Assembly: GCA_947175875.1 (NCBI GenBank)
Contig: CAMWON010000002.1
Coordinates: forward strand, 80,357-144,356
From: an uncultured Alphaproteobacteria bacterium
GTDB lineage: Bacteria; Pseudomonadota; Alphaproteobacteria; Rs-D84
DNA: 64,000 nt
Reading direction: 5' to 3'
Shown here: positions 14,401-44,187 of the stretch, one piece after another
How the letters are laid out: each line of letters begins with the position of its first letter
Position numbering within the stretch: position 1 is the first letter of the stretch
Notes under the pieces: generated by a model
The model's input: only the letters and a program-made list of their open reading frames with translations
Databases searched by the model: none
Told to the model about the DNA's origin: nothing
Translations under genes and position numbers: made by a program

Positions 14401-14424
14401 GGCGCGCAATGCGCCCGTTTTTAT
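14401..14424 (+). terminator. Rho-independent terminator downstream of ftsK
   Basis: Hairpin ggcgc-gcaat-gcgcc followed by cgtttttata. Confidence 0.6.
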
Positions 14425-14425
14425 A

Positions 14426-14573
14426 TTCGGACGAAAAACAAACTCCTGAACCGCGGGTCAGGAGGGTTGCGAATATATTGAATAAGCACACAATTCTATG
14501 GATTGTTCTGAACCTCCTGACCACTCAAATTTTGGGTGGTTTTTCATTTCGAAAAACAACAGGAGAAGAACGA
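14426..14573 (+). promoter_or_regulatory. Structured 5' leader of Cys-rich paralog 1 with alternative pairings and a terminator-like hairpin + U-run immediately upstream of the RBS
   Basis: Hairpin ctcctga-accgcgg-tcaggag (about 14444-14464). A second cctcctga copy (about 14513-14520) can compete for the tcaggagg arm. Hairpin ccactc-aaattttg-ggtgg + ttttt (about 14521-14544) ends about 30 nt before the ATG. The same architecture sits upstream of paralogs 2 and 3. Confidence 0.4.
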
Positions 14574-15203: not shown

Positions 15204-15207
15204 AAAA

Positions 15208-15240
15208 ACATACCGGTGTTTGCCGGTATTTTTATGCTTT
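15208..15240 (+). terminator. Rho-independent terminator after Cys-rich paralog 1
   Basis: Hairpin ataccgg-tgtttg-ccggtat followed by ttttatgctttttt. Confidence 0.55.
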
Positions 15241-15291
15241 TTTATCGATTCGAATTATGGTATAATTTGTACCAAAAGGAGAACTTTTATT

Positions 15292-23873: not shown

Positions 23874-25309
23874 GCCTTTTTGCCAAACGCCTTGGACATG
23901 GCGCCGAATATCTGGGTCGGGGCAGACCATATCTTTTTGCCCAAATCCTTGGTCCATGCGCCAAAGTCAAACTGTTCCTTGCCCGGCGCGGACAGTATCT
24001 TGTCAACGCGCGGCGCCACGGCGTAATAGTACAGCAGGAACAGTCCAATCATTAACATCAGGAAATCCCATCCGTTTGACATAAAGTCGAATGCGCCGGG
24101 ATAGTGTCGCTCAACCTCTGCGCGGCGGGCGGTGAAACAGTTCTTGAACGCGTCCGCGTCCATTTCGCCGTCCGAGAGGGCGACGCGTTCGCAATCTGAG
24201 AACACGCGCATTACGGACAATGTTTGCGCGTCCGGATTTTCCGGTGCGACCCCCATCATCGGCGGCAGTATCGCGCTGTACCCGTCGGCGGGGCCGGGGA
24301 AGAATTCGTCGGCCGCGTACGAGACGGTCGCGTAAATGATAAGAATTTTTAATGTTATTGCGATAATTTGTATGGCGGTTTTAACCAGCATGTTTATCGC
24401 GTTGCCGGTTATGCCCCCGGCCAGCTTCCATGTTTTTTCAAATGCCGCCGCCGCCAGCAGGAACGGCAGGAATATTATTAAAAATACCAATTTGAATACA
24501 ACCGACAAAATCTGAAAGAACAGGTCGAACCCGATAATCAAAAACATTATCACCAGCGCCAGTCCCGCCAGCCATGTGAACAGGCCGCCGCCCATGCCCA
24601 GCCATGCGTAATTCATCAATGCAAATCCGCCCGCGGCGCCCGCCAGCATCACGCTGTTCAAATTTCCGATAACGCACATGAACGGCGCCATTACCGGGTT
24701 TAATATATCCGCCGAATCCGCCGCCGCGGTTTCCAGCGCGCGGCATTGCGAGCCCTGGGTTGTGCCGGTCGCCGCCATTGACAGTTCGGCGCCCACAAAC
24801 ATTACGGGCGTGATTGTTATGTTGGCGACTGTTTTTAACGCGGTTGTCCCGCCCATGCCCAGTGCGCCGATAAACACGCCGACGAACATTATGCGCGCGC
24901 CCTGGCGCCATACTTTGTCGAACCATGCCTGAAATTCTAGTTTCTTTTCAGACGTGTCCAAAGTGGACGTTTTCTGGGCGGCGGCATAGATATGCCGTAT
25001 CGCCTCTATAAACAGGAACAGCCCGAACCCCAGTGCCAGCAGTATCCACAGCGTTTCCACTATGGCGTTCCAGAACATTTCCGTTGCGCGGCTGATTACC
25101 GCAAACAGCTCCGTTATATACCCGCACATAAAGCAGCCCGATGCGCCGGCGATGTCGTCGGATGCACCGATTGCCGACATGAAATTATCCATGCTGGTGT
25201 ATGTTAAAGCCGCGCCGCCAATCGACGACGACAGGTACCAAATTCCGATACCCAGCGCAATGGCACCCATGATTAAGCGAATGGCAATCATTATTAATTT
25301 CGCCTTCAT
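23870..25309 (-). CDS. Polytopic inner-membrane protein, VirB6/TrbL-like paralog B (putative)
   Basis: 479 aa. The N-terminal CFMCGYITELFAVIS motif is shared with paralogs C and E (CWGCPVFDRLFQVIS, CWSCDMFGAVMATMS). Multiple TM helices and a Lys-rich tail. Start ATGA-overlaps the stop of paralog C. Confidence 0.5.
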   Translation of the reverse strand: MKAKLIMIAIRLIMGAIALGIGIWYLSSSIGGAALTYTSMDNFMSAIGASDDIAGASGCFMCGYITELFAVISRATEMFWNAIVETLWILLALGFGLFLFIEAIRHIYAAAQKTSTLDTSEKKLEFQAWFDKVWRQGARIMFVGVFIGALGMGGTTALKTVANITITPVMFVGAELSMAATGTTQGSQCRALETAAADSADILNPVMAPFMCVIGNLNSVMLAGAAGGFALMNYAWLGMGGGLFTWLAGLALVIMFLIIGFDLFFQILSVVFKLVFLIIFLPFLLAAAAFEKTWKLAGGITGNAINMLVKTAIQIIAITLKILIIYATVSYAADEFFPGPADGYSAILPPMMGVAPENPDAQTLSVMRVFSDCERVALSDGEMDADAFKNCFTARRAEVERHYPGAFDFMSNGWDFLMLMIGLFLLYYYAVAPRVDKILSAPGKEQFDFGAWTKDLGKKIWSAPTQIFGAMSKAFGKKA

Positions 25310-26505
25310 TTTCCACCCGCCTTGTCATCTTTTTTACCGCCGTTTATAATCGTCGCCCCGATTTTTTTCATGGTTTGGGCCGCCGCCGTGGTCAGTTTCA
25401 TCGCGTCGTCGGCCAGCTGTTCGCCCAGTTTGTTATCCGCCGATACGTTGAACGCGCCAAGCACCATGTTCGTGACCTGGGGAATCTGGGAATAGATATA
25501 ATTTAGTACATATACCAGCACAATCGCACTGCCCAGGGTTATCTGTGCCAGATTGTCCTGGTCAAGGTCGGCTTCAAACACGCTGCCGTTTGTAATCAGC
25601 GCCATCAAATCCGCCGTGGATGCACCGGGTGCGGAAAAGAATTTTGCGATTATCACCATTATCACCGTATATGTCAGTACCGCCGCCGCCAGACCAATTA
25701 TGGCGTTTATGACTTTTTTGAACTGGTCCGTTCCGACATTTTTGCCCAGGTTTGCCATCCATTGCGGCGCGTCGGCCCCTTTGAACGAGACCAGTGTTAA
25801 CGACAACGGAAAGAAAAATGCAAAGAAAGTCATTGCGATAATCACGTCCGCAAAGTAAAAGCAGAACCGTACGAACAGCTTGAAAAATCCATAGAACAGG
25901 TACAGTCCCACAAAGAACATTATTATATGTTTTATCAATGCGCCGATGCCCAGTAATGCATCCCAAGAAAATGCGTTATTCATTACAACGATGCCCAGTT
26001 TCATATAGGCCTGGAACTGGGTTATCGTGGTTTTCATAATCAGAATTATCGTATCGCGCAGGGCGGGGCGATAGAATCCGTCGTCGGACATCTGCATCGG
26101 CTGATAGGTCACTTTTTCATTAATCGTTTCCGTGTCCATGCGCAGCATGCTTTGCGTGTATATGGCCGTTATCTGGGCGACGGGCTCGAACGTTATCGTT
26201 GTTACAAAACGCGGCAGCCACACGCCCAGCGACAAAAACGCAAACGCCACCAAAGAGTTTATGAATACCGGCCGTATGGATTTTGCATAGAACGGGTCGC
26301 CGTCCGCACCGCCCTTGATGTTTTTCCAGACCGCGGACACCACAAAAAATGCGAACAGTACGCAGAACAGTATCATGCAGAACACGACGAACTTGTCATA
26401 TACCGCGGCGGCGGCCATTGATATCACCTGAAACAGACGGTCAAACACCGGGCAGCCCCAACACTGCACCGCGCCGTCTATGATAGGGTTCATTAGCTCG
26501 TTCAT
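25306..26505 (-). CDS. Polytopic inner-membrane protein, VirB6/TrbL-like paralog C (putative)
   Basis: Start at MNELMNPIIDGAVQCWGC, where ATGA overlaps the stop of paralog D. N-terminal amphipathic segment then a TM bundle, as in VirB6 (F..F..L...I then TM1). Gly/Lys-rich C-tail. Confidence 0.5.
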   Translation of the reverse strand: MNELMNPIIDGAVQCWGCPVFDRLFQVISMAAAAVYDKFVVFCMILFCVLFAFFVVSAVWKNIKGGADGDPFYAKSIRPVFINSLVAFAFLSLGVWLPRFVTTITFEPVAQITAIYTQSMLRMDTETINEKVTYQPMQMSDDGFYRPALRDTIILIMKTTITQFQAYMKLGIVVMNNAFSWDALLGIGALIKHIIMFFVGLYLFYGFFKLFVRFCFYFADVIIAMTFFAFFFPLSLTLVSFKGADAPQWMANLGKNVGTDQFKKVINAIIGLAAAVLTYTVIMVIIAKFFSAPGASTADLMALITNGSVFEADLDQDNLAQITLGSAIVLVYVLNYIYSQIPQVTNMVLGAFNVSADNKLGEQLADDAMKLTTAAAQTMKKIGATIINGGKKDDKAGGK

Positions 26506-27794
26506 TTCTTTTTCTTTATCCAGCCTGCGGCCCGACCGATTGACTTGCCCCAGTTTTTGGCGCCGCTCCATGTCTTTTTCGCGTCGCCTGTCACCTGGGT
26601 GTAGAGCTTGTCGCTGGCCGGGGAATACATTTTTAAGCGCTCGCGCGTTAGGTCAAATATGCGCAGCATTAAATAAAACGTCATTATCGCGGACAGCCAC
26701 AGTATCGAATGCTCGCCAAATCCCATGGCGTGGTTTGCCACCTGGGGGACGTTGGATGCGGCACTGCCGCCGGCGGCGACAACGAACACGGAACTGTTCC
26801 AGTTGAACAGGGCGCGCACAATCGCGACGTTTATCGTTAAAATAAACGCGCATGCAATCATTGTTATCACCAGGGACTGCAGCGCCTTGGTAATTCCGGA
26901 AAATGCCGGCCATATGTCGAACCATTTGTCCGGGTTCTTGGGCTTTACGACCCATGTCAAGACCTGGAACGGGTACAGAATCAGCGCCATTCCAAATTCA
27001 AATATCGCCTGAATAATCAGCAGCGCCATAAACAGATTACACCCGACAAACGCCGTCACAATCAATATGCCCGAGACCAGATTCATAAAGTCTTCGCCGC
27101 CGTGCGGTATTAGTGTTATCAGTCCGCGCAGCCCCCGGTGTATAAAATCAAATCCGCGCTTTATCATCTGGTTGTTCGTGTGGCTGATGTCGGCGATTGG
27201 CTGGGTTAAAAATTCACAGCTGCGCTCCGATATCCATTCCTTTTCCAGAATGTCCGGCGGGCATTCGACCGGCGCGGCGGCCGATGCCGCGATGCCGCCC
27301 GTGTTTATTCCGTCGGTGATTGCGCGCGTATAGATTGCACCGAATTCCAGAAACGGATTGACCAGCCATTCCGTCACATATACCGGTTTTATCTGCAATA
27401 AAACCACCGCCGCGATTATTGCGCGCAGGCCGGGCTTTAACATGTTCTGGGCGATGGTCATGCTGTCCGCCTTGCCGGATGCCATTTCGCCGCCGCCGGA
27501 AAATCCAAAGAACGCGACCCATTTTGCGGGGAAATACATTTTCACCAGATACAGGCCCATCGATATCCCCAGAAAGCCCCATATTAAAATGTATATGATG
27601 CCGTCGCCGTTTCCGACAAAGAATTCATATCCGCCCGTTGCGACCGCCATGAACGCGTCCAGCACCATCGGCACGAACGGCGCCAAATTAAAGCTGTCGA
27701 CGATGCCCCAGTCGGCATGCGCCGCGCACGGCGCCATAAGTGCGGCAAAAAACAGCGCGGCCGACAAAATTTTTTTTATTCTGGTCATATACAT
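26502..27794 (-). CDS. Polytopic inner-membrane protein, VirB6/TrbL-like paralog D (putative)
   Basis: 430 aa; signal peptide MYMTRIKKILSAALFFAALMAPCAAHA; periplasmic segment, TM bundle and KKKK tail. First gene of the four-gene minus-strand run. Confidence 0.5.
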   Translation of the reverse strand: MYMTRIKKILSAALFFAALMAPCAAHADWGIVDSFNLAPFVPMVLDAFMAVATGGYEFFVGNGDGIIYILIWGFLGISMGLYLVKMYFPAKWVAFFGFSGGGEMASGKADSMTIAQNMLKPGLRAIIAAVVLLQIKPVYVTEWLVNPFLEFGAIYTRAITDGINTGGIAASAAAPVECPPDILEKEWISERSCEFLTQPIADISHTNNQMIKRGFDFIHRGLRGLITLIPHGGEDFMNLVSGILIVTAFVGCNLFMALLIIQAIFEFGMALILYPFQVLTWVVKPKNPDKWFDIWPAFSGITKALQSLVITMIACAFILTINVAIVRALFNWNSSVFVVAAGGSAASNVPQVANHAMGFGEHSILWLSAIMTFYLMLRIFDLTRERLKMYSPASDKLYTQVTGDAKKTWSGAKNWGKSIGRAAGWIKKKK

Positions 27795-27817
27795 ATATAT
27801 TTATTGTTTTCAATTAT

Positions 27818-27841
27818 ATCACATTTGAGGGAAAATGTGAT
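27818..27841. promoter_or_regulatory. Perfect palindrome ATCACATTT-n6-AAATGTGAT in the 60-bp divergent intergenic region between paralogs D and E; candidate operator
   Basis: 9-bp arms with a 6-bp spacer, centred in an AT-rich divergent promoter region (27795-27854). Confidence 0.45.
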
Positions 27842-27854
27842 ATACTTAAAAGCG

Positions 27855-29150
27855 ATGGGGCGCCTAAAAAAATTTTGGATAGTGTTTTTGTCGTTTCTGC
27901 CGCTGTCGGCGGGGGCGGTGGCGCCGTTTGTCGTGGGCGGCATCGCCGGGGCGGTCGGAATTGCGGGCTTTTCAATATTTAGAAGTACGTCGCCCGTCAA
28001 CATGGCGGACGCGCTGTCGTTTTTTTCCAGCTGCTGGTCGTGCGACATGTTCGGCGCCGTTATGGCGACAATGTCGAATTTATTGCCAAAGGCGTACGAT
28101 GCGATTGCGGGCGTCGTGATACCGTTTGCGGCGGCGCTGTCGGCGATATGGTTCGCGTGGAAGATTTTTTCAGGATTTTTAAACGCCAAGATTGACGACC
28201 CGTGGTCCGTCACCGGTGCGTTCGGAACGCATCTGATAAAGCTGGCGGCGGTATGTGCATTGCTGATGGCGCCACTGCCGCGGCTGATAAGCGATATTGT
28301 TATTCAGCCGATATTTACTGTCGGCCTGTCGGTAAATCATATCGCGGCCGACATGGCGGGCGAGGGGAGGTTCAACGAATGCGTCGTCGCAACCGCACTG
28401 GCCGATCCGGTTGTGGTGGATGCGAACGCGGCGGCGGCGGGCGCGTTTTCGCCGTATCTGCGCCACAACCTGGCGTGCGAGGTTGGAAATGTACACCAGA
28501 TGACGGGCCTGGGCATGACGGTTGGATGGACCATGATGAACATGGCGTTTAATTCCAAGTACATGCACAAGATTATGTGGGGCGTGCCGATTTTCCCAAA
28601 TGTCCCGATTTTCTTTTGCGGTCTAATGATAATAGTGCTGTTCTTTTTCGCATTGCTGCCGATACCGATATATTTTCTGGAGATATTTATCACACTGGCG
28701 ATGGATTTGATAATGCTGCCGCTGATGCTGCTGGGGTGGCTGTTCAAGGGGTGGGCCATATTCCCCCAGGGCGGCCGCACGATTAAACAGATGATAGACG
28801 ACGTGATAAAGGGCACGGTCGGCATCGCGATGACGGGCGTGTTTTTGACGTTCTCGATAATGTTTTTGAACGCGGTGTTCGGAAACTGGGGCGGGGCGAC
28901 GCGGTTGGCGGTGGCGCTGGAGAAAAACGATTCGATGTTACTGATGGACGGCCTGTTGATGCGCAACGACAGTATTGTCACAATTATCCTTATGGGGATT
29001 TTCATTGCGATGTTCATGAACATGATTCCCGCGCTGGTCAAGACTTTGTTTAGCATATCGATATCCGACAAGTATTATGAAACAACGAAAAAGAACATAA
29101 ACATAGTATGGGGAAACATGAAAAAATGGTACGCCGCGTTAAAAAAATAA
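27855..29150 (+). CDS. Polytopic inner-membrane protein, VirB6/TrbL-like paralog E (putative), divergent from A-D
   Basis: 431 aa from MGRLKKFWIVFLSFLPLSAGAVA (signal). CWSC motif, then Trp-rich periplasmic loop, 6+ TM helices and a Lys-rich C-terminus. Confidence 0.5.
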   Translation: MGRLKKFWIVFLSFLPLSAGAVAPFVVGGIAGAVGIAGFSIFRSTSPVNMADALSFFSSCWSCDMFGAVMATMSNLLPKAYDAIAGVVIPFAAALSAIWFAWKIFSGFLNAKIDDPWSVTGAFGTHLIKLAAVCALLMAPLPRLISDIVIQPIFTVGLSVNHIAADMAGEGRFNECVVATALADPVVVDANAAAAGAFSPYLRHNLACEVGNVHQMTGLGMTVGWTMMNMAFNSKYMHKIMWGVPIFPNVPIFFCGLMIIVLFFFALLPIPIYFLEIFITLAMDLIMLPLMLLGWLFKGWAIFPQGGRTIKQMIDDVIKGTVGIAMTGVFLTFSIMFLNAVFGNWGGATRLAVALEKNDSMLLMDGLLMRNDSIVTIILMGIFIAMFMNMIPALVKTLFSISISDKYYETTKKNINIVWGNMKKWYAALKK

Positions 29151-32299: not shown

Positions 32300-33564
32300 T
32301 CTTTTTTACGAAAGCTGTCCCAATATTCGACGCGCTTTTTTATCTCGCGCTCGAACCCGCGTTCAATGGGTTTGTAAAATTTTTGACGCGGCATGGATTC
32401 GGGGAAACAGTTCTGGCCGCTGCAGCCTGACGCCGTGTCCGGGTCGTATACGTATCCCGCGCCGTATCCCATGTTTTTCATCATTTTTGTCGGCGCGTTT
32501 AAAATTGTTTTCGGCGGGGGCAGGCTGCCGTTCTCGCGTGCGGCGGCGTATGCGGCCTTTTGCGCCTTGTAATTGCCGACGCTTTTCGGCGCCGTGCCCA
32601 AATATATTACCAGTTCCGTTAATGCCAGGTCGCCCTCCGGACTGCCCATGCGTTCATATAACTGCCACGCGCTAAGCGCCAATTGCATCGCGTTCGGGTC
32701 GGCCAGACCGACATCCTCTATCGCGAAACGCGCCAGACGCCGGAACAGGTACATCGGATCCTGGCCCGATGTCATCATGCGCGCCGTCCAGTACAGCGCC
32801 GCATCCGTGTCCGATGCACGCAGTGATTTGTGCACCGCCGATATTAAATTATAATGCTCGTCCCCACTTTTGTCCGACATGGGCGCGCGCTTTTGCACGG
32901 CGTTGTCCAATTCGTCCGGCGTTAATTCCCCTTTGAATCCGGCGTTCGATAAATATTCGACCGTGTTTAACAAAAAGCGTGCGTCGCCGTCCGCCATTTC
33001 GGCCAGGTGCGCGCGCGCCGCCGTATCCAGCGGCAATTTTTTTCCCAAGTATTCTTCGGCCCGCGATATAAGGGTCAGCAAATCCTCGGTCCCCAGTGCC
33101 GTTAACACCCCGATATGACAGCGCGAGAGCAACGCGTTGTTTAAATTAAAACTGGGGTTTTCGGTCGTGGCGCCGATGAATACGACTGTGCCGTCCTCCA
33201 GATAGGGCAGCAATGTGTCCTGCTGCGTTTTGTTAAAGCGGTGAATTTCGTCGATAAACAGCAGCGTCCCGCGGCCGATGTCACGCGTCATGCGTGCGGC
33301 CTCCATCGCCTTTTTTATATCCGCCGTGCCGGAAAATACCGCCGACATCGGAACAAAATCCATATCGACCGATGCGGCCAATGCGCGCGCGATTGTGGTT
33401 TTGCCGCACCCGGGCGGCCCCCATAAAATCAAATTGGATAATTTACCCGCCGCGACCATGCGGCGAACGATGCCCGTATCGCCCAGCAACGCACGCTGGC
33501 CCAGGACGTCGTCAATCGTCGCAGGGCGCATTAAATCGGCAAGAGGGCGGGTATCTGTGGCCAT
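32296..33564 (-). CDS. rarA: Replication-associated recombination protein A (AAA+ ATPase RarA/MgsA)
   Basis: LILWGPPGCGKTTIARALA Walker A; LFIDEIHRFNKTQQD Walker B/sensor; C-terminal MgsA helical domain (YDPDTASG...). Confidence 0.85.
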   Translation of the reverse strand: MATDTRPLADLMRPATIDDVLGQRALLGDTGIVRRMVAAGKLSNLILWGPPGCGKTTIARALAASVDMDFVPMSAVFSGTADIKKAMEAARMTRDIGRGTLLFIDEIHRFNKTQQDTLLPYLEDGTVVFIGATTENPSFNLNNALLSRCHIGVLTALGTEDLLTLISRAEEYLGKKLPLDTAARAHLAEMADGDARFLLNTVEYLSNAGFKGELTPDELDNAVQKRAPMSDKSGDEHYNLISAVHKSLRASDTDAALYWTARMMTSGQDPMYLFRRLARFAIEDVGLADPNAMQLALSAWQLYERMGSPEGDLALTELVIYLGTAPKSVGNYKAQKAAYAAARENGSLPPPKTILNAPTKMMKNMGYGAGYVYDPDTASGCSGQNCFPESMPRQKFYKPIERGFEREIKKRVEYWDSFRKKD

Positions 33565-33634
33565 TTTATTTAAACTTTACTTTCGTTTTATGGTATAATG
33601 AATTTATTAAATAAACAAGGGATTATATAAAATT

Positions 33635-33994
33635 ATGAGTGACGGAAAGCATTCTGATATCGCGACGGCAATTCTGGCGGCGGCGATAATCGGCGCGCGG
33701 CCCGATACGGACGCGGATGCCGCCGTTCGCATCGCGCGCACTGCATTGACGGGCGGGGCGCAGTGCGTGGGGGCGGACAAAATTGCGGCATCTGTCCGCG
33801 GGGACAAGATTCAGTGTCTGGAGGACGGAACGTGGCACACAATGCTGCGCCGGTATATCGCGCGCAAATACAACATGACCCCGGCGCAGTATCGCGCGAA
33901 ATGGGGCCTGCCGGATGATTATCCGTTTGTGGCGCCGGATTATGCCGCGCGCCGTTCCGACATTGCAAAGAATTCCGGTTTGGGCCGAAAATAA
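33635..33994 (+). CDS. Ros/MucR-family transcriptional regulator (variant zinc-finger region)
   Basis: IQCLEDGTWHTMLRRYIARKYNMTPAQYRAKWGLPDDYPFVAPDYAARRSDIAKNSGLGRK matches the Ros/MucR C-terminal consensus (CLECG..FK.LKRHL...H.LTPEEYREKWGLP.DYPMVAP.Y...RS.LAK..GLG). The second zinc-ligand Cys is Asp here. tatggtataat -10 upstream. Confidence 0.75.
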   Translation: MSDGKHSDIATAILAAAIIGARPDTDADAAVRIARTALTGGAQCVGADKIAASVRGDKIQCLEDGTWHTMLRRYIARKYNMTPAQYRAKWGLPDDYPFVAPDYAARRSDIAKNSGLGRK

Positions 33995-34006
33995 AGGACG
34001 TTTGTT

Positions 34007-35890
34007 ATGGCTGAAAAATTTAGAAAGATTGTGAACGCGCCGCACAAGGCATTCGGACGCGCGCGCAAAAATATCGCAAAGATGACGCCGACAACTAAAA
34101 AGGGCAAGGCGGTGCGCGCCGCCGGCGTGGCGATGACGGGGATGTTTCAATTTCTGCTGTGGGCGCTGAAATACGCGGCGCTGGACAATCATGCGACGCG
34201 CGCGATGGAACGGGGCTTTGGAAACATGACCGTCGGCAAAAATAAGGACGGAAAAGATAAAAAGCTGTCCGCGTTTGCGAAAAAGTATCCGAATCTGTCG
34301 TCGCATATGCTGTATTACATGATGCTGGGGGCGGCGGCAATCGCCACGCCGCATGCGTATGACGCGTTGACCAACGAGGGGGAGGAAAACGACAAAATCG
34401 AAAGCATGGCGGAAATTCCGTTCGGCCAGCCGGGGACATACGGCGCATATCTGGACCGCATGCGTTCGATAACGCCGCTGTTGATTGCGGACCTGATTGC
34501 AAAAGAGGGCGTTCATATGGACGACCAGGGACGCCATACGCCGTACAAGGATTCCAACGGAATACCGACAATCGGATTCGGCTCTACCGTTCTAAAGGAC
34601 GGCAGCAAGGTCACAATGAAAACACCGCCCATTTCAACCGAGGAGGCGTACGAGCTGGCGCGGTGGCATCTGGAGCAGGGCGAGACTTATTTCGTTATGT
34701 ACTGTTATGACGTGGCGATGGAAAATGTGAACATCAACACCACCAACGAGGCGTTCGGAATGGCCTCTATCGTTTATAATGCGTACTCAAAGTTAATTGA
34801 AAATCCAAAGGACACGTCGCATCAAAAGCGCTTTGAAAAATTGCGCGAAATATATGACCAGTACGGCCTGGCGACGCCCGATTCGTTGATTGTTGATGCT
34901 TTCGCGCAGTATCCGGTAAAGGACATGCGCAGCTTTGGCGAAAAGTGGCTGGGCGGGGCGCCCGTGCAGACAACGGCGAACATGCTGGGGAACTTTCTGG
35001 CGGACGGACGCGGAATGTACTGGCGCCGCTGGCTGGAGGCGGGAATGCTGACCGGCGATATCACGCCAGAGATGATGCTGGATTGTCCGGCAAACGGAAT
35101 GTACGAATTTTTTAAGGTCATGAAAGAAAAGAAAAGCGCGTTCTTTATCGGCGACGGCGAAAACCGCCGCGTCAACAAGGAGACGTATGCAAGGTTTAAA
35201 GAATGGCTGGCCAACCCTGTGAACGAACGCGGCGAGCGCTTGGGCGAAAAGAATTTCCCGCGTGTTCGTAATCTGCTGCCGGCCGATGTGCGCGTCATGT
35301 GTGAAAGCGGGCACTGTAAATTGGGCGACGTTGAATTTATCGCCCAGTTCACCGCCACCCCCGCCCAGCAGGAGGCCGAGACCGCATCATATGTAATCGG
35401 ATATGACGAACAGTATCGCCAGGCGGTCGGCGCATTCCGCGCGGGCGATTATGACGGCGCACTGGCCCAGTATCTGAAAATGGCGGAGGAATATCCGAAC
35501 AACGCCTTGATTCACAACGACCTGGCGGCGACGTACAACCAGCTGGGGCGCTATGACGATGCGATTAAACATGCGCGCATCATCATAAACGAAATCGGCG
35601 ACAAGAGCCAGTACGGTGCCGCCCAGTACAACGCCGGATTCGCGTACGAACAAAAGGGCGATTTGCAAAAGGCGCTGGCGAATTATAAACTGGCGCTGGC
35701 CAACGGGAACAGACGCGTGCAAAAAGACATAACGCGCGTGTCACAGCAATTGAAGTCACAGCAGAAGGGGCGCGGTAAAAAATCGGCCAAGACCGCATAT
35801 GAGCGTGGTGCGAAAAAGCTTGGAAACAATGCACATAGCGCGGATTTTGATATGTTAAGTGCGACGCATGGCGGCCACGGTATGGCGTAG
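34007..35890 (+). CDS. Membrane-anchored T4-type lysozyme (GH24-like) domain protein with C-terminal TPR repeats
   Basis: One N-terminal TM (AVRAAGVAMTGMFQFLLWAL). KEGVHMDDQGRHTPYKDSNGIPTIGFGST matches the T4 lysozyme catalytic block E11-G...Y18-K-D20....T26-I-G-x-G. C-terminal TPR-like repeats (YPNNALIHNDLAATYNQLGRYDDAIKHARI; YNAGFAYEQKGDLQKALANYKLAL). Confidence 0.6.
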   Translation: MAEKFRKIVNAPHKAFGRARKNIAKMTPTTKKGKAVRAAGVAMTGMFQFLLWALKYAALDNHATRAMERGFGNMTVGKNKDGKDKKLSAFAKKYPNLSSHMLYYMMLGAAAIATPHAYDALTNEGEENDKIESMAEIPFGQPGTYGAYLDRMRSITPLLIADLIAKEGVHMDDQGRHTPYKDSNGIPTIGFGSTVLKDGSKVTMKTPPISTEEAYELARWHLEQGETYFVMYCYDVAMENVNINTTNEAFGMASIVYNAYSKLIENPKDTSHQKRFEKLREIYDQYGLATPDSLIVDAFAQYPVKDMRSFGEKWLGGAPVQTTANMLGNFLADGRGMYWRRWLEAGMLTGDITPEMMLDCPANGMYEFFKVMKEKKSAFFIGDGENRRVNKETYARFKEWLANPVNERGERLGEKNFPRVRNLLPADVRVMCESGHCKLGDVEFIAQFTATPAQQEAETASYVIGYDEQYRQAVGAFRAGDYDGALAQYLKMAEEYPNNALIHNDLAATYNQLGRYDDAIKHARIIINEIGDKSQYGAAQYNAGFAYEQKGDLQKALANYKLALANGNRRVQKDITRVSQQLKSQQKGRGKKSAKTAYERGAKKLGNNAHSADFDMLSATHGGHGMA

Positions 35891-35909
35891 CGGCGGGGGA
35901 TATGCAGAA

Positions 35910-37853
35910 ATGAAAGTGTATGTAAATTACGACGATGCGCGCTGGAGAAAATATAAAATAGATTTCCGGCACATTGCCGCCGCCGCGGGGCCGCGCCGCC
36001 CGGGGGCGGAGGTGTCGATAACATTGGTCGATGACGCGACGATACATCGGCTGAACAAAGAATACCGCGACATGGACAAGCCGACGAACGTTTTGTCGTT
36101 TGAACTGGGCGACGAGATGTTGTTGGGGGATATTTACATATCGCTGGACACGGTTGCGCGCGAGGCGGCGGCGGCCGGCATATCGGTTGCCGAACACACC
36201 GCGCATATGGTTGTGCACGGGATGCTGCACCTGCAGGGGTACGACCATATCCGTGATGACCAGGCCGCGGTCATGGAATCGTGCGAGGTGGAGATTCTTA
36301 AAAAATTGGGAATAAAAAATCCGTATGCGGACGAGGCGCCGTCGCGCGCGCGCGGCATGCGCGGATGGGTGCGCGCGCTGTGCCTGGCGCTGGCCGGGGC
36401 GGCGGCGTCATTCGGTTTTGCGCCGTTTCATCTGTGGCCGGTGACAATGCTGGCGATTGGGGCGGCATACTGGATTTTGACGTCCGCACCGCGCGCGGGC
36501 GTTGCACGGACGTTTCTGCGCGCCGCGCCGTTCGGTGCGGCATACGGCGTCGCCATGTTTTGGTGGGCGCTTAGCTCCATATACGTTGTGCCCGAACTGG
36601 CGCGTCAGTTTGCAATTTGGACCGTGCCGGGATTGCTGGGGCTGGGGCTGGCCGGTGCGCTGGTGTTTTCGATTCCGTTTGTCGCGGCGACGCGCGCGCG
36701 CGGCGCATCGCGCATATTTGTGTTTGCAGGCGTATGGACGGCGGTGCTGTGGGCGCGTGAATGGATGTTTACCGGATTTCCGTGGAATCCGATTGCGAAC
36801 ATCATGTTGCCCGTGTCGGTAATCGCAAATTCAATGGCGTTGTTCGGGGCGCTGGGGTTGACGTTTGTTCTTGTCGGAATCATTGCGGGCGCGGTTGAAA
36901 TTATGCGTGATAAAAAATGCGCTATGTGCTGGATTTCGTGGCTTGCGTTCATTTTGATGTTGTGCGGTGGCACTATGTACGGACGGCGTAATATTTATAA
37001 GTCGGATGCTATGCCGGATGCGCCAGGGCCACTGGTCCGCGTGGTGCAGCCGGCGACGTCCCAGGACCAAAAAATGTCTTATTCGCGCGCCGACGCCGTT
37101 GCGCGTGCAGAGCGTAATGTGCGAAATCTGTTGGCGCTGGGGGCGGGGGGCGACGGTGCGCGGCCGGATTTGATTGTTTATCCGGAAACGACGTATCCGT
37201 TTGTCATAACCGACGACGACATGCCTTTTTCAAAGATTTTGGATACAAACGTTATTTTGGGCGCGACGTCGTATCGTGACGGGCGGCTGTACAATTCCAT
37301 GATTGTGGCGGACAGGGCGGGGCGCGTCGTGCATGCATATGACAAGGCGCATCTGGTGCCGTTCGGCGAATACGGTCCGCTTGGGATAATGCCGTCGCCG
37401 GCCAATCTGGCCAGCGGCACGGGGCGGGTCGCGCTGGATATCGACGCGGGTGACGGACGCTTTGTTTTTGCGCCGGCGATATGTTATGAAATTATTTTCT
37501 CCGATTCGCTTATCCCGGCCGGCGTCACGCCGAACGCGATAATAAACATTACCAATGACACATGGTTTGGGCGCACGCCCGGCACGTACCAGCATCTGGA
37601 CATGGTGCGCCGATATGCAATCGAGTCCGGCGTGCCGGTTATCCGTGCGAATTATTCCGGAATCAGCGCGTTTGTGGCGCCAGACGGCCGTGTGACGTCA
37701 ATGCTGCCCGTGGGGCAGACGGGCGTTTTGGACGGACGCGTGAACGGGGCGCACATGACGGCGTATCGCGCACTTGGGCGCGACGCATGGATTTTGATAA
37801 TTTTGATTGTGGCGTCCGTCGGCGCGGCGGCGGGCGCGCGGCGTCGCGATTAA
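35910..37853 (+). CDS. Single in-frame ORF fusing a YbeY endoribonuclease domain with an apolipoprotein N-acyltransferase (Lnt) domain
   Basis: N-terminal MKVYVNYDD...HGMLHLQGYDH (YbeY H3xH5xH metal site). From about 36355, MRGWVRALCLALAGAAASFGFAPF... carries Lnt TM helices and the CN-hydrolase domain (E...K...C triad region ICYEIIF). No stop codon separates the two. The upstream extension to 35859 overlaps the preceding gene, so the ATG at 35910 is preferred. Confidence 0.6.
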   Translation: MKVYVNYDDARWRKYKIDFRHIAAAAGPRRPGAEVSITLVDDATIHRLNKEYRDMDKPTNVLSFELGDEMLLGDIYISLDTVAREAAAAGISVAEHTAHMVVHGMLHLQGYDHIRDDQAAVMESCEVEILKKLGIKNPYADEAPSRARGMRGWVRALCLALAGAAASFGFAPFHLWPVTMLAIGAAYWILTSAPRAGVARTFLRAAPFGAAYGVAMFWWALSSIYVVPELARQFAIWTVPGLLGLGLAGALVFSIPFVAATRARGASRIFVFAGVWTAVLWAREWMFTGFPWNPIANIMLPVSVIANSMALFGALGLTFVLVGIIAGAVEIMRDKKCAMCWISWLAFILMLCGGTMYGRRNIYKSDAMPDAPGPLVRVVQPATSQDQKMSYSRADAVARAERNVRNLLALGAGGDGARPDLIVYPETTYPFVITDDDMPFSKILDTNVILGATSYRDGRLYNSMIVADRAGRVVHAYDKAHLVPFGEYGPLGIMPSPANLASGTGRVALDIDAGDGRFVFAPAICYEIIFSDSLIPAGVTPNAIINITNDTWFGRTPGTYQHLDMVRRYAIESGVPVIRANYSGISAFVAPDGRVTSMLPVGQTGVLDGRVNGAHMTAYRALGRDAWILIILIVASVGAAAGARRRD

Positions 37854-38047
37854 ATTTTGTTTTGCAGAATCCACACGCGGATTGCCGACGACAGATTGCG
37901 CGTTCCGCGCGCCGAATCTATGTCGCCGATTATTGCGGCCACTGCGCGACCGCGCGTCCGTGCGATTTCACGCAGGGCCGTGATAAATTCAGGCTCTATT
38001 GAAACGCTGGTCTGGTGGCCGGATAAAGATACTGATAATTTTTTCAT
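37850..38047 (-). CDS. Small ribbon-helix-helix protein (RHH_4-like, alphaproteobacterial family)
   Basis: MKKLSVSLSGHQTSVSIEPEFITALREIARTRGRAVAAIIGDIDSARGTRNLSSAIRVWIL matches the SVxLxGHxTSVSLEPEFWxAL...NLSSALRVxxL pattern of RHH_4 proteins. Confidence 0.5.
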   Translation of the reverse strand: MKKLSVSLSGHQTSVSIEPEFITALREIARTRGRAVAAIIGDIDSARGTRNLSSAIRVWILQNKI

Positions 38048-38054
38048 TTTGTCC

Positions 38055-38489
38055 CTATAACTTGCCCGCCGCCAGACAGTCCGTCATGGCGCGGTACATG
38101 TCGTCGTATTTTCGCAGTATGCGCAGCGACAGATTGTCCAGCATATAGAAGGCGCCGAATGTGTCGAACGCAAAAAAGAACAAATCATTGCGTCCGAAAA
38201 TCGTTTTCCCGTACATTGATGCGATATGCGCCATGTCTCGGTTGACGTCAACGATTGACGGGACGGGATGCGTGGTGCCGCGCTGAATCTCGGCCGGGCC
38301 AAAAATGTATCCCGCGCCGTTTATGATTCCGCCGGTGACGGCGAACAGTTCCTGCAGGGCTATCGGCAGCATGGCCGCCCGCATCCCCTGCAACAACAGG
38401 TTTGTCGTCGCGATATCGCGTGCGGGGCGGGGGGCGGTTATTTCCATGCCGCGTGCGCGCAGTGTTGAAATAAATTCGTCGCGTGTCAT
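38055..38489 (-). CDS. Hypothetical protein (144 aa)
   Basis: ORF in an operon context 8 bp upstream of the RHH gene. No recognised motif. Confidence 0.45.
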   Translation of the reverse strand: MTRDEFISTLRARGMEITAPRPARDIATTNLLLQGMRAAMLPIALQELFAVTGGIINGAGYIFGPAEIQRGTTHPVPSIVDVNRDMAHIASMYGKTIFGRNDLFFFAFDTFGAFYMLDNLSLRILRKYDDMYRAMTDCLAAGKL

Positions 38490-38507: not shown

Positions 38508-39014
38508 TTATTCCATGCCCCGGCTTGTCGCAATCTGGGCCGCAATCTGGGACAGGCGGTCTTCTGTTGCGTTGCCGCCGTCGCCGCCGCCGCCGGTATG
38601 CGCGGGTATGTATATTTTTTTTGCAGGCGCGGGCAGCCATACGGTGTCATGGCCCGTCTGGCCGATAATGAATCTGTCAATGTTTTGCGAGTGCGGAAAT
38701 GTTGCGCACATGAACATGTTTTCAGGGGATATTTCGCCCCCCCACGCCATCGGCGTGCGCATGCGAATTGACATGTTTTTCGGAATTGCCGCGCCCGTTA
38801 CCAGGGCCATGAATTCATCCTGGCTTAAATTCATAAAGGCCAGTTCTTCGACAGAGTCCGTTAAACTTTGCATAAAGCGGTGGCGGGCGGTGCGATACCG
38901 CTGGAACCAGTCGGCGGGAACCTGATGCGGCACGGGACGCACCGCCACCAGCGGCATGTCATCCATGCCAAGGTCCATTATGATTTTTTCGGCCGATGCC
39001 TGGCTTAGCTGCAT
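38508..39014 (-). CDS. Hypothetical protein (168 aa)
   Basis: ORF whose start overlaps the stop of the upstream membrane-protein gene at 39014. Gly-rich C-terminal segment (HTGGGGDGGNATEDR). No recognised motif. Confidence 0.45.
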   Translation of the reverse strand: MQLSQASAEKIIMDLGMDDMPLVAVRPVPHQVPADWFQRYRTARHRFMQSLTDSVEELAFMNLSQDEFMALVTGAAIPKNMSIRMRTPMAWGGEISPENMFMCATFPHSQNIDRFIIGQTGHDTVWLPAPAKKIYIPAHTGGGGDGGNATEDRLSQIAAQIATSRGME

Positions 39015-39913
39015 TATGTTTTATCCATATAGTTTATGACGGTGTCGATATATTCCGAATACGCGTCAAAGTTTTCCCGGCCGTCCGCATCTTCGGGCGG
39101 GGTGTTTTTATGTGCCGCCATGTATTCGGCCAGTGCGTCTGTATCCGGGAATGTTAAAATATTGTTGTCGGATACCGCGCCGGCGGGTGCGATTATAAAT
39201 CCATAAATGTTTATCTGTATGTCGTCAAGGGTGTCGGAAAACACGGTGCCCAATCGTTCCATTGCCGCGGCCAAGGGTGCCTGGTCGATGCCGACGCCGC
39301 CCATCCACAGTGTTTCGGATGTGCCGATGGCAAATACCGCCGGCTTAAAGTTTCCGATTTGCGGACTGCGCTTTACGCTGTATCCGGCGCGGTCAAAGAT
39401 ATCGCGCAGGTCGTCAAAATTTAGCGTGTTTGCCGCGGGGCCGTGCGGCGGCGCCGGTGTCACGGTCGGTGTGGTGGTGGTTGCCGGTTGGAGCGATTGT
39501 GCCGCGGGCGGCGTGATGCGGGGCGGGCGCCGCATTTGTGACGCGGCCGGGCGCGGTGCGGCCGGTGCAATCGGTGTGTCCGCGGCGGGGGTCGGTTCGG
39601 GGGTGACGGTCGGCGTTGTCACGGCGGCGGTCTTGTTCCGGGCGCGCCCGATGCCGATGCGCCGGCGTAAAATTCCCTTTGGACGGATAAGTATGTAAAG
39701 AACGGCAATGGTAATTACGATTGCGCTGGTCAGCGATATATAGAATGCCGGGCGAATTGGTGTCTGGGATGCTTGCAGATATGCCAGATACTGCCAATGC
39801 TGGGCCGAGAAGATATTAAAACCAAACACGGTGCCCAGCCAGAAACTGGTCCCCAGAGTCGCCGCCAGCAGCCAAAGCAGGCAGATTAAAATACGTTCTA
39901 TTTTTTTGTTCAT
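39014..39913 (-). CDS. Membrane protein (2 N-terminal TM helices, Pro/Thr-rich linker, C-terminal globular domain), unknown function
   Basis: MNKKIERILICLLWLLAATLGTSFWLGTVF... then ~90 aa of TPTVTPEPTPAAD-type linker, then a conserved-looking 130-aa C-terminal domain. First gene of a four-gene minus-strand operon. Confidence 0.5.
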   Translation of the reverse strand: MNKKIERILICLLWLLAATLGTSFWLGTVFGFNIFSAQHWQYLAYLQASQTPIRPAFYISLTSAIVITIAVLYILIRPKGILRRRIGIGRARNKTAAVTTPTVTPEPTPAADTPIAPAAPRPAASQMRRPPRITPPAAQSLQPATTTTPTVTPAPPHGPAANTLNFDDLRDIFDRAGYSVKRSPQIGNFKPAVFAIGTSETLWMGGVGIDQAPLAAAMERLGTVFSDTLDDIQINIYGFIIAPAGAVSDNNILTFPDTDALAEYMAAHKNTPPEDADGRENFDAYSEYIDTVINYMDKT

Positions 39914-39923
39914 TTGTCTTTGA

Positions 39924-40643
39924 TTGTATCATATTTGTGGTAAAGTAAAAAGTATAATGATGGCAACGGACGCTTTTTTTGACGAGGTATCAGCGAATAT
40001 GGCCCTGTGGTGCGAGGGTGGTTTTGAGGCGGGCGAACTGGCGCGTGTGGCGTCTGCGGCGGCGGCCCAGACCATGCCCGTGATATCCGCGCTGCCGGCC
40101 GATGTGCCGATGCTGTGGACGTGGCTGGAAAAGACGACGGTCAGAATTTATTCCCGTTTTTATCTGCCGGCGCGCGGTGCGCGTGACGAAAAGGCGATGT
40201 CCGATTTAACCGCGCGGGTAAACGCCGCCTTTAAACAGGGGGCGCATGGGGCACAAATTTTTATGCGTGCGGCGGATTTGACCGATTTTGCAAATGAAAT
40301 AGGCGCGGTGCGCGACGATTTGTTCTTTAACCGTGAACTGGCTGTCGGCATTGATATCGCAGAGGTCGGACCGTTTGACTGGCCCGCGGTGTTCGATGCG
40401 GTGCGCCGCCTGCGGGCGGGGGCGCTGGTGTTGGTGCTGACGCGTGATAACGGCGACGCGTCTGATTTTGTCGGGCGGCTGTATGCGGCGGTCGGCGCGG
40501 CGGCGAATGCAAAGTGCGATTTGCACTTTGTTTTGGGAAACAGTCCCGTCCGTATAGAGCAGGCGCTGCGAATGGTTCGTGCGGTGCGGCCGGAAAAGGC
40601 CGGCGGGGTCCGCATTTTTCTGCATACCGGGGGCGAGGCATGA
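39924..40643 (+). CDS. Hypothetical protein (239 aa; start uncertain, alternative Met at 39957)
   Basis: ORF divergent from the four-gene operon with an Ala/Arg-rich soluble protein composition. A tataat overlaps the alternative start. Confidence 0.45.
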   Translation: MYHICGKVKSIMMATDAFFDEVSANMALWCEGGFEAGELARVASAAAAQTMPVISALPADVPMLWTWLEKTTVRIYSRFYLPARGARDEKAMSDLTARVNAAFKQGAHGAQIFMRAADLTDFANEIGAVRDDLFFNRELAVGIDIAEVGPFDWPAVFDAVRRLRAGALVLVLTRDNGDASDFVGRLYAAVGAAANAKCDLHFVLGNSPVRIEQALRMVRAVRPEKAGGVRIFLHTGGEA

Positions 40644-41866: not shown

Positions 41867-43444
41867 ATGAGACAAGGATTACCGGCCGATTTGATTGCCA
41901 AGATACTGGGTGCGGCCCCGAAATACACGATTGCGGAATTGGAAGAGATGTTTGGACCGCGCGATTTGCCGGACGGCGCGTTTGTCACGCGTTTCGCGCC
42001 CAGTCCCACGGGCTTTATGCATTTGGGCGGGCTGTATGGCGCGCTGATTGACTGTAAGCTGGCGACGCAGACCGGCGGGGTTTTTATGCTGCGTATCGAG
42101 GATACGGACACCAAGCGCGAGGTGGCCAGCGCCGTCGATATAATCGTGGAATCAATGCGCCGATTCGGCCTGCGGTACAATAACGATTCGAAATACGGCC
42201 CGTATTATCAGTCACAGCGCCGTGATATTTATCATTCCGTCGCGGCACATTTAATGGCGACGGGGCGTGCGTATCCGTGCTTTCTGGCGGCGGCGGATAT
42301 GGAAAAAATTCGTGAAAACCAAAAGGCGGCGGGTTTTGCAACCGGCATTTACGGTGAATTTGCGCGTGACCGCGATTTGACGGCCGCGGAGATAGAGGCG
42401 CGTCTGGCGGCCGGTGAAAAGCCGTCCGTGCGTCTGTATTCCGAGGGAAATCCGGAGCGTCGCATTTTCTGCAAAGACGTTGTTCGCGGCAGTATCGGAT
42501 TCCCAGAAAGCAACGAGGACATTGTCTTAATCAAATCGAACGACGGGTTGCCGACGTATCATTTCGCACATCTGTGCGACGACCACTTTATGCGCACGAC
42601 GCATGTGGTGCGCGGGGAAGAGTGGCTGCCGTCGTTCCCGCTGCATGTGGCGCTGTTCCGCATGATGGAATGGACGCCGCCGATGTACATTCACACGTCC
42701 ACAATCGACAAGATTGACGCCGAGACGGGTAAGCAGAGAAAATTATCCAAGCGCAAGGACCCGGAGGCGAACGTCGAGTTCTTTTTGCGCGACGGATGGC
42801 CGGTAGAGGCCGTGCTGGAATACCTGGGCAATATTGCGGCGTCCGGTTACGAGGAGGCCAAGTCCAAGGGCCAGGTAAAATCCATATGGGATTATGAAAT
42901 GCGCCCGAAAAAGATTCCGATGTCGGGTGCGCTGTTCGACATGAAAAAACTGGAATGGTGGGCGAAAGAGTTTATTGCGACACTGGCCGTGTCGGATTTG
43001 ACGTCGCGCGTTGCGGCGTGGGCGGCCGAATACGGCGACGCCCAGCACAAGGCCCAGACGGCGGATACGGATTATCTGGCGGCGGTTCTGGGGATAGAGC
43101 GCGACAATCCGAAACGCATCCGCAAGGATTTTATTACCTGGCGCCAGACGCTGGATACGGTTGCGTTTTTCTGGGACGATTTGTTCGTGCCGAATACAGA
43201 GTTTGAATACAACCGCGACGTGTTGCGTGAATTTTTGAATGTATACGACCCGGCCGACGACAAGGACGCATGGTGGGCAAAGATGGTCGCGATTGCCGAG
43301 ACGCTTGGGATTAAAAACGGCGATGTGGCGATGACGCTGCGCGTGGCGCTGTCGGGACGTACAAACACGCCCGATTTGTATTCAATAATAAATGTTATGG
43401 GACCGGCGCGCGTGCGCGGCAGAATAGAGGGGGCGCTTAAATGA
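41867..43444 (+). CDS. gltX: Glutamate--tRNA ligase
   Basis: RFAPSPTGFMHLGG (HIGH-class motif), catalytic core and a C-terminal anticodon-binding extension (525 aa). Confidence 0.8.
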   Translation: MRQGLPADLIAKILGAAPKYTIAELEEMFGPRDLPDGAFVTRFAPSPTGFMHLGGLYGALIDCKLATQTGGVFMLRIEDTDTKREVASAVDIIVESMRRFGLRYNNDSKYGPYYQSQRRDIYHSVAAHLMATGRAYPCFLAAADMEKIRENQKAAGFATGIYGEFARDRDLTAAEIEARLAAGEKPSVRLYSEGNPERRIFCKDVVRGSIGFPESNEDIVLIKSNDGLPTYHFAHLCDDHFMRTTHVVRGEEWLPSFPLHVALFRMMEWTPPMYIHTSTIDKIDAETGKQRKLSKRKDPEANVEFFLRDGWPVEAVLEYLGNIAASGYEEAKSKGQVKSIWDYEMRPKKIPMSGALFDMKKLEWWAKEFIATLAVSDLTSRVAAWAAEYGDAQHKAQTADTDYLAAVLGIERDNPKRIRKDFITWRQTLDTVAFFWDDLFVPNTEFEYNRDVLREFLNVYDPADDKDAWWAKMVAIAETLGIKNGDVAMTLRVALSGRTNTPDLYSIINVMGPARVRGRIEGALK

Positions 43445-44187
43445 CAAAGAACAAAAAAATTGTCCGCAAGAAATTAAAAGAGGTAAAAAGCGATTCGCAT
43501 GCGTCGCGCGTGTTGCGCGCGCTGCGTGCGACGGGACTGTTCCGTTGGGAACGGCCCAGCACCAAATCCGAAGAGGTTTTGAATATATTGACGCACGGCA
43601 TCGGCATCGGCCTGGCGATGGCGGGGCTGACGCTGCTGGTGGTGTTTGCGGTATTGGCGCACAATACGTGGGCGATTGTATCGTGCGCGATATTCGGATT
43701 AACCATGTTCACGCTGTATTTCGGTTCGACCATGTGCCACGCGATGATAGGGCAGAAATCGGAATGCTTTTTTGAGGTGTGGGACAGTGTTGCGATTTAT
43801 GCACTGATTGCCGGAACGTACACGCCGTTTTGTTTGGTGAATTTGCGCGGGGGATTGGGCTGGACTGTGTTCGGAATCCTGTGGGCGATAACGATATTCG
43901 GTGCGATAATGAAAATTGCGCGTCCAAAGCAGCAGCCGAAATGGATGGTTGCGCTGTATCTGGTCATGGGATGGACGCTGATATTTATTCTGCCGGCGAT
44001 GCTGCGTCATATCTCGGCGCGCGGAATGTGGTTTATTCTGGCGGGCGGGTTGTCGTACAGTCTGGGTGTGATATTCTATCTGTGGCGCAAGATGAAATAT
44101 TCGCACGCCGTATGGCATCTGTTCGTTATCGGCGGCAGTGTGTGCTTCTTTTTTGCCGTGCTGTTCGGATGCATAATAGATTTCTAA
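43441..44187 (+). CDS. Hemolysin III-family (PAQR/YqfA) channel protein
   Basis: 7-TM protein with conserved His motifs (…HGIGIG…, HAVWHLFVIGGS). Confidence 0.8.
   Translation: MTKNKKIVRKKLKEVKSDSHASRVLRALRATGLFRWERPSTKSEEVLNILTHGIGIGLAMAGLTLLVVFAVLAHNTWAIVSCAIFGLTMFTLYFGSTMCHAMIGQKSECFFEVWDSVAIYALIAGTYTPFCLVNLRGGLGWTVFGILWAITIFGAIMKIARPKQQPKWMVALYLVMGWTLIFILPAMLRHISARGMWFILAGGLSYSLGVIFYLWRKMKYSHAVWHLFVIGGSVCFFFAVLFGCIIDF

Follow-up and report, generated by a model that had tools for sequence, protein, structure and literature searches.

We analysed a stretch of 64,000 nucleotides (nt) from an uncultured Alphaproteobacteria bacterium (Rs-D84; assembly GCA_947175875.1, contig CAMWON010000002.1, positions 80,357–144,356 of the forward strand), hereafter called the window, in which a single open reading frame (ORF) joins the genes ybeY and lnt, the latter encoding apolipoprotein N-acyltransferase. 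According to the ORF list and the raw sequence, the stop-free frame extends on the plus strand from a GTG at 35859 to 37853. The ATG at 35910 was taken as the start because every homologue begins at the same MKVYVNY N-terminus, which leaves 647 codons plus a TAA stop and a polypeptide with a predicted size of 71 kDa. An earlier reading of the letters alone (the sequence-only reading) had reported this frame as one of 648 codons containing a complete YbeY domain with HGMLHLQGYDH and a complete Lnt, and our analysis bore out all three statements. A Shine-Dalgarno (SD)-like GGGGGA lies in the 19-nt gap between the TAG of the upstream gene (35888–35890) and the ATG. SD strength was calculated as duplex energy with the anti-SD sequence, and the mean within the fusion ORF (−2.95 kcal/mol) served as background. 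The GC content of the window is 50–57%. The features of the locus are listed below (aa, amino acids; TM, transmembrane helix):

35895–35900 (+): SD-like GGGGGA, 9 nt 5′ of the ATG, within the 19-nt gap after the lysozyme/tetratricopeptide repeat (TPR) gene; −8.6 kcal/mol against the background mean
35910–37853 (+): whole ybeY-lnt fusion ORF, 647 codons and TAA; same architecture in 120/120 listed homologous clusters
35910–36335 (+): YbeY domain, aa 1–142, from Pfam and TIGR matches and PDB 1xm5/1xax (E 6e-27); predicted cytoplasmic
36216–36248 (+): zinc-binding H3xH5xH motif HGMLHLQGYDH, aa 103–113, invariant in 91/91 aligned fusions
36336–36365 (+): linker EAPSRARGMR, aa 143–152, Arg-rich, 29% mean pairwise identity, length varying among homologues; peptides spanning the junction are LGIKNPYADEAPSR, ARGMR/GWVR and NPYADEAPSR
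36357–36359 (+): in-frame ATG of Met150 just before TM1 of Lnt, judged not to be a conserved initiation site
36366–37019 (+): Lnt membrane domain, aa 153–370, TM1–TM7, from LNT_N and PDB alignments; TM1 matches E. coli Lnt from residue 12
37020–37769 (+): periplasmic nitrilase-like catalytic domain of Lnt, aa 371–620, from the CN_hydrolase match
37185–37187, 37344–37346 and 37482–37484 (+): Lnt catalytic residues E426, K479 and C525, from PDB alignment
37770–37853 (+): TM8 of Lnt (AlphaFold2 helix 624–644), short basic C-terminal tail ARRRD from the sequence, and TAA

The YbeY and Lnt modules

Both halves of the protein exceed the family thresholds by a wide range. Residues 30–133 match Pfam YbeY (PF02130; E 1e-34, 119.5 bits against a cut-off of 25), NCBIfam YbeY (TIGR00043) scores 130 bits with a cut-off of 45, and in PDB alignments aa 25–142 align with the E. 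coli and H. influenzae proteins up to residue 153 of 154–155. The zinc ligands H103, H107 and H113 correspond to E. coli H114, H118 and H124, and R53 to E. coli R59 (1xm5 alignment). In the Lnt part, LNT_N was matched by aa 162–323 and CN_hydrolase by aa 445–620, and the NCBIfam lnt model (TIGR00546) was hit with 222.9 bits, its equivalog cut-off being 132.9. Residues 153–633 align with E. coli Lnt from residue 11–13 to about 500 (PDB alignments), such that E426, K479, C525, E527 and E487 take the places of E. coli E267, K335, C387, E389 and E343, with the CYE and PET motifs aligned. As the PDB alignments cover both modules, both are complete, and at the junction the extreme C-terminus of YbeY meets the extreme N-terminus of Lnt.

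An alignment of 91 fusion proteins was used for residue invariance, regional identity and structure prediction. The three zinc ligands and R53 of YbeY as well as the five listed Lnt residues are unchanged in all of them, and mean pairwise identity amounts to 73% for YbeY, 65% for the Lnt nitrilase domain, 56% for the Lnt membrane domain and 29% for the linker. By this measure no other region is conserved as strongly as the YbeY domain, which looks unlike a decaying remnant. Because the catalytic residues are kept in both modules, each likely retains its usual job; judged by residue conservation, the role of YbeY in 16S rRNA 3′-end maturation and ribosome quality control and the N-acylation of apolipoproteins by Lnt have most likely been kept. 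Each half is an ordinary member of its family; what is new is the combination, a real, conserved and unannotated domain architecture.

An AlphaFold2 model built from the same alignment has a mean pLDDT (per-residue confidence) of 87.6 and a pTM (predicted template modelling score) of 0.76. The YbeY domain is predicted confidently (pLDDT about 90 over aa 1–130), and only aa 142–144 fall under a pLDDT of 50, followed by a long helix that constitutes TM1 (145–169). The model contains eight TM helices in total, with TM2–TM7 at 176–192, 198–226, 228–253, 267–286, 309–333 and 338–367. In Foldseek comparisons (TM-scores normalised to the target structure) the YbeY fold reached 0.78–0.85 to 1xm5/1oz9, and no solved structure spanned both the YbeY and the Lnt parts. 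In E. coli Lnt, the N- and C-termini are both cytoplasmic. Because the N-terminus of Lnt is cytoplasmic, we infer that YbeY is cytoplasmic too and tied to the inner membrane through about 10 residues, the nitrilase domain of Lnt being periplasmic. The Arg-rich linker region SRARGMRGWVR and the ARRRD tail are consistent with the positive-inside rule.

Conservation and genomic neighbourhood of the fusion

A search of 5.8 billion proteins yielded 935 matches at E ≤ 1e-10. All 120 clusters listed (55–98% identical, 590–681 aa, from NCBI, ENA, JGI and Logan) comprise YbeY, LNT_N and CN_hydrolase. When 1.84 billion representatives were scanned exhaustively with HMMER, further full-length fusions down to 35–51% identity emerged (P0121, P0122, P0123, P0125, P0126, P0135 and P0136), the rest being Lnt-only. 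Fusions 98% (P0001) and 94% identical to the window protein (P0002, 28 member sequences) come from independent samples. In addition, the intact fusion lies in the same neighbourhood on four further contigs of independent origin (L081–L084; Logan SRR30592922, NCBI GCA_964313715.1 with a contig of 887 kb, and two ENA assemblies), the conserved gene order being mgsA (minus strand), ros/mucR, lysozyme-TPR, fusion, trmB (minus strand), gltX, hlyIII and thrS.

The sequence-only reading had left three options, namely an authentic bifunctional protein, two genes of which lnt is initiated internally, and an artefact at the junction. The last of these, a sequencing or assembly artefact or a recent pseudogene-like stop loss in one genome, can practically be dismissed. 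Nothing was found in its favour save that neither the assembly index nor the public collection has a record of exactly the window protein; P0001 (98% identical) and P0017 (65% identical) were used as proxies. It is refuted by at least 120 divergent clusters from independent assemblies, with diverged fusions numbering in the hundreds, by the near-identical fusions P0001 and P0002, by the same ORF in Logan, NCBI and two ENA assemblies, and by linker indels that are all in frame. Two discrete genes, which had been expected in relatives if this frame were a lone artefact, do occur, but only in distant relatives of about 30% identity, whereas all close relatives are fused. The conserved fusion and the intact domains support the bifunctional protein among the three options, as far as sequence can tell.

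Short YbeY-only matches (P0143, P0170, P0131, P0133 and P0142) were considered as free-standing paralogues and rejected, as they represent contig-end fragments, frameshifts or chimeras of fusion genes. In one Candidatus Enterousia sp. metagenome-assembled genome (MAG; L005), a 97-aa ORF directly after the fusion (8014–8307) repeats part of the Lnt membrane domain (FVLFAGVWLLVLWAREWLFTGFPWN), the result of either local duplication or misassembly.

Where public names are given, they read “apolipoprotein N-acyltransferase” only, from MAGs of Alphaproteobacteria or “Rickettsiales”, leaving the YbeY module unnamed. YbeY is among the most conserved bacterial proteins (PMC7515705; 10.1101/2023.03.20.533420). 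Because the names list the acyltransferase only, surveys of Rs-D84 or Enterousia-like MAGs will wrongly score ybeY, a marker of minimal gene sets, as missing. Relatives that carry a name belong to Candidatus Enterousia, which lives in the gut of farm animals and is placed in the order Rs-D84 of the Alphaproteobacteria (PMC12306168, a 2025 study). Rs-D84/Enterousia genomes have about 0.75–1.0 Mb and about 850–950 genes, and their lifestyle is probably partner-dependent (PMC12306168).

The gene upstream of the fusion (34007–35890, plus strand) encodes 627 aa with a weak phage-lysozyme match and TPR repeats at the C-terminus. Its end lies 19 nt from the start of the fusion, and its position is kept in L082–L084 at 65% protein identity. 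Co-transcription of the two genes is probable and would add another envelope-related link. Downstream, a convergent 65-aa ORF (37850–38047, minus strand) shares 3 nt with the fusion stop codon; in L082 the corresponding ORF is annotated as PF13467 (RHH_4), but there an extra gene of 283 aa separates it from the fusion. Further along, gltX (41867–43444) and a HlyIII-family gene (43441–44187) share a 4-nt ATGA-type overlap at 43441–43444, which suggests tight translational coupling in a compact genome. Several long ORFs of 264–477 aa at 14409–16539, 25306–29150 and 39014–40643 had no Pfam match at E ≤ 0.001, in keeping with the many hypothetical and possibly membrane-bound proteins reported for Rs-D84 genomes. 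Nothing relevant to the fusion came from Rfam and tRNA scans of the window.

Translation across the junction

The sequence-only reading had placed an own Met/TM start of Lnt at about 36355. An ATG does precede TM1 at 36357–36359 (Met150), but it is not conserved and does not pair with the anti-SD (+1.2 kcal/mol). We surveyed 118 homologues over the stretch between the end of YbeY and the GFAP motif of TM1. Linker and first part of TM1 together comprise 22–61 aa and are always in frame; a Met occurs anywhere in this stretch in 48 of the 118, at no fixed position, and is absent at the position of Met150 in many. In L001 there is no in-frame ATG, GTG or TTG across the 61 aa of linker and TM1.

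These data bear on the second option, in which two products would be made, the full fusion and a separate Lnt starting near Met150 or at the GTG of codon 154 (36369). In its favour, the window and the relatives nearest to it have an in-frame ATG just 5′ of TM1, and a weak or leaderless-like initiation is compatible with the sequence. Still, we regard it as very unlikely. GTG154 pairs at −3.3 kcal/mol, which is background level, and neither codon approaches the energy of the true start. Candidate starts upstream of TM1 in the other fused loci pair at −3.3 or weaker, and the stronger SD candidates there sit within membrane helices, where initiation would truncate Lnt. By comparison, an unfused lnt (L008, see below) does carry an SD (−7.3 kcal/mol). 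When 33400–38300 was scanned for promoter and terminator consensus sequences, no internal promoter appeared ahead of the junction, and sites were no more numerous than expected from shuffled sequence. Thus, an internal ribosome-binding site (RBS) before the Lnt Met was not found, the proposed gene pair with internal initiation lacks a conserved Met and an SD, and a separate translation start for Lnt is not supported by the sequences compared. Production of Lnt rather seems to hinge on initiation at the start of YbeY, and this dependence would explain the maintenance of the frame without functional synergy.

Most fusions contain a Cys-rich insertion between YbeY and TM1 (P0021–P0120; L001 at about 6400–6580), for example ECNCGCGGKCNCVDCKCKNCSCCNCPGDKTISFFKKIKIRENGFWQ. 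At least three Cys were found in 80 of the 118 homologues, a “CPG” motif in 73, and the maximum is 11 Cys. The insertion is absent from the window (36336–36365), which belongs with its closest relatives P0001–P0016 to a subgroup with a short, Cys-free linker. A Pfam scan of the Cys-rich linker yielded no family; by its composition it possibly resembles a metallothionein or another metal-binding stretch.

Origin and interpretation of the fusion

For locus comparison, one genome per species was scanned, and the ORFs were parsed and Pfam-checked. As the sequence-only reading had stated, ybeY, corC and lnt are usually separate neighbours: in other Alphaproteobacteria we found the block phoH-ybeY-corC (CBS and CorC_HlyC)-lnt (L033, L054, L058 from Rhizomicrobium, L061, L064, L073, L075 and L077). 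In two MAGs (L008 and L009), corC is absent, and ybeY and lnt lie in the same frame with a stop and one to three codons between them (3–9 nt apart). The junctions read GAA TAG GAG AAT TTT ATG in L008 and GAA TAA AGA ATG in L009, and phoH is still upstream in both. L009 (CAVBCV010000004.1) is labelled “Lachnospiraceae bacterium” despite its proteobacterial-type phoH-ybeY-lnt block, which is probably a binning or labelling error. A single fused ORF was read in the window, L001, L002, L005, L006 and L007, and L003 and L004 look fused by match length and coverage. Identity to the window protein is 53–58% for L001–L005, 44% for L006 and 37% for L007, and in L006 and L007 miaB is directly upstream, without phoH.

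In the window, no gene lies between the ybeY and lnt parts, and tblastn with alphaproteobacterial queries (E ≤ 0.01; PhoH, three CorC and MiaB) found none of corC, phoH and miaB in the 64 kb, in agreement with the earlier statement that corC is missing from the locus. Pfam scans of 25 window ORFs were also without CBS, CorC or DUF21, and the only YbeY and Lnt matches in the 64 kb (tblastn) lie within the fusion ORF.

A different view would be that YbeY has been co-opted to serve Lnt, for example by regulation or metal sensing in the cytoplasm, and that a separate ybeY elsewhere does the rRNA job. The window search for ybeY covers 64 kb only, most homologues have a Cys-rich, possibly metal-binding linker, and the ybeZYX-lnt operon has been described with a linkage that is conserved without known reason (10.1101/2023.03.20.533420), all of which would agree with co-option. 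We nevertheless give it very little credence, since neither the zinc ligands nor R53 vary and no other region of the protein is as conserved as YbeY, as expected of a sole housekeeping copy, and since paralogues are unlikely in genomes of <1 Mb with about 850–950 genes (PMC12306168).

We consider the ORF to be a genuine, vertically inherited fusion that most likely yields one bifunctional inner-membrane protein, and assign this reading, drawn from sequence comparison, a probability of roughly 0.8. The sequence-only reading had described corC as absent and the two remaining genes as fused, or a stop codon as lost, and an origin by loss of corC and of a stop codon agrees with the ancestral block and the same-frame, stop-split intermediate state in relatives. 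The ancestral block would have been miaB-phoH-ybeY-corC-lnt. Loss of corC would have left only a few codons, in frame, between the ybeY stop and the lnt start, and from a state like that of L008 and L009 one substitution in the ybeY stop codon would suffice to create the fusion. Stop loss and loss of the lnt RBS would then have joined the YbeY C-terminus to the Lnt N-terminus via a short variable linker, with YbeY and Lnt made 1:1 from a single start codon. Once the lnt start signals were lost, translation of the essential Lnt would have been tied to the YbeY start and the frame locked. The order of the steps, corC loss and then stop loss, is what we infer from the compared loci.

Some observations do not sit easily with this account. 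In a neighbour-joining tree of the Lnt part, which is rough, carries no support values and was not used to count fusion events, L008 and L009 group with the corC-containing L061 and not beside the fused clade. They would accordingly illustrate a possible route and are not the actual ancestors, and their corC loss is probably a parallel one. Moreover, two Lnt-only loci without adjacent ybeY (L085 and L086) lie near the fused proteins in this tree, and there may have been several fusions or rearrangements in the history of the locus. Finally, the linker, which is variable and modelled with low confidence, might serve as a protease site. Apart from this, P0136 sits apart in the tree. L085 (1102–8080) and L086 come from a “Rickettsiales” MAG; their Lnt and the Lnt module of the window protein are 42% identical, the ORF upstream (174 aa) has no Pfam match, and a Cas9 gene is located about 2 kb downstream of lnt.

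If the linker were such a site, the fusion would be a precursor cleaved into soluble YbeY and normal Lnt, and fusing the genes would be a co-expression device only. The linker is the least conserved part (29%), variable in length and the only low-confidence stretch of the model (aa 142–144), and YbeY is normally soluble and acts on ribosomes (PMC7515705). However, cleavage seems distinctly unlikely to us, because the linker shows no conserved cleavage motif and has only about 10 residues in the window lineage, and because no sequence feature requires cutting, as the topology already puts YbeY in the cytoplasm.

The simplest explanation for the genuine fusion is genome reduction, of which it is best read as a tolerated by-product, because it occurs in Ca. 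Enterousia-type gut Alphaproteobacteria with genomes of <1 Mb. When genomes shrink, genes commonly become fused as intervening and intergenic DNA disappears, and the stepwise shrinkage of miaB-phoH-ybeY-corC-lnt fits this picture. A “Rosetta stone” reading, according to which YbeY normally works at the inner membrane, physically or functionally associated with Lnt or the envelope-biogenesis machinery, is unlikely in our view; for a functional link of YbeY to the membrane or Lnt, co-occurrence is the sole support here. If it were true, it would explain the ybeY-corC-lnt linkage across Proteobacteria, and the clade's only YbeY would be permanently membrane-anchored, with late 30S maturation and ribosome quality control taking place at the membrane.

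The part that YbeY plays in ribosome biogenesis and its mode of action are still called unclear (PMC7515705; 10.1101/2023.03.20.533420). A natural experiment would be at hand in a clade that has YbeY solely as a membrane-tethered extension at the N-terminus of Lnt: if this is the sole copy, YbeY can do its essential job without free diffusion and without adjacent PhoH or CorC. The fusion would then also offer a simple construct for assessing the localisation-dependence of YbeY in model bacteria, and the comparative series traces, stage by stage, the way from an operon to a fusion gene under genome reduction.

The literature searched contained no description of a YbeY-Lnt fusion or of YbeY joined to an integral membrane enzyme. 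With E. coli YbeY (1xm5) the N-terminal module shares the full-length match to residue 153 of 155, the zinc motif, the R59 equivalent and the fold (TM-score 0.78–0.81). It differs in that its partner phoH/ybeZ is neither adjacent nor found in the 64 kb, and in that, unlike the C-terminus of free-standing YbeY proteins of about 155 aa, its own runs into a membrane protein and should be anchored in the inner membrane. With E. coli Lnt (5vrg/5n6h/6nwr) the C-terminal module has in common the eight TM helices, the periplasmic nitrilase-like domain between TM7 and TM8, the E-K-C triad, the E343 equivalent and a TM-score of 0.77–0.80, whereas the first about 11 cytoplasmic residues are replaced by the 142-aa YbeY domain and linker, and the fused Lnt seems to have neither a start codon nor an RBS of its own. 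YbeY tolerates a C-terminal extension in plant chloroplasts as well, where it carries a HAD-like domain, but that partner is soluble while here it is an integral membrane enzyme. Compared with the ybeZYX-lnt operon of E. coli and most Alphaproteobacteria, ybeY and lnt follow each other in the same order and orientation, and the fusion is evidently derived from this operon, although corC is not between them, phoH is not upstream, both are absent from the 64 kb, and the upstream neighbour is the lysozyme/TPR gene, a new conserved synteny. The ybeY-lnt pair of L008 and L009 resembles the fusion in the missing corC, the shared reading frame and the distance of 3–9 nt, and differs from it by the TAG or TAA stop and the lnt ATG, which are retained (with an SD in L008), and by phoH, which is still upstream.

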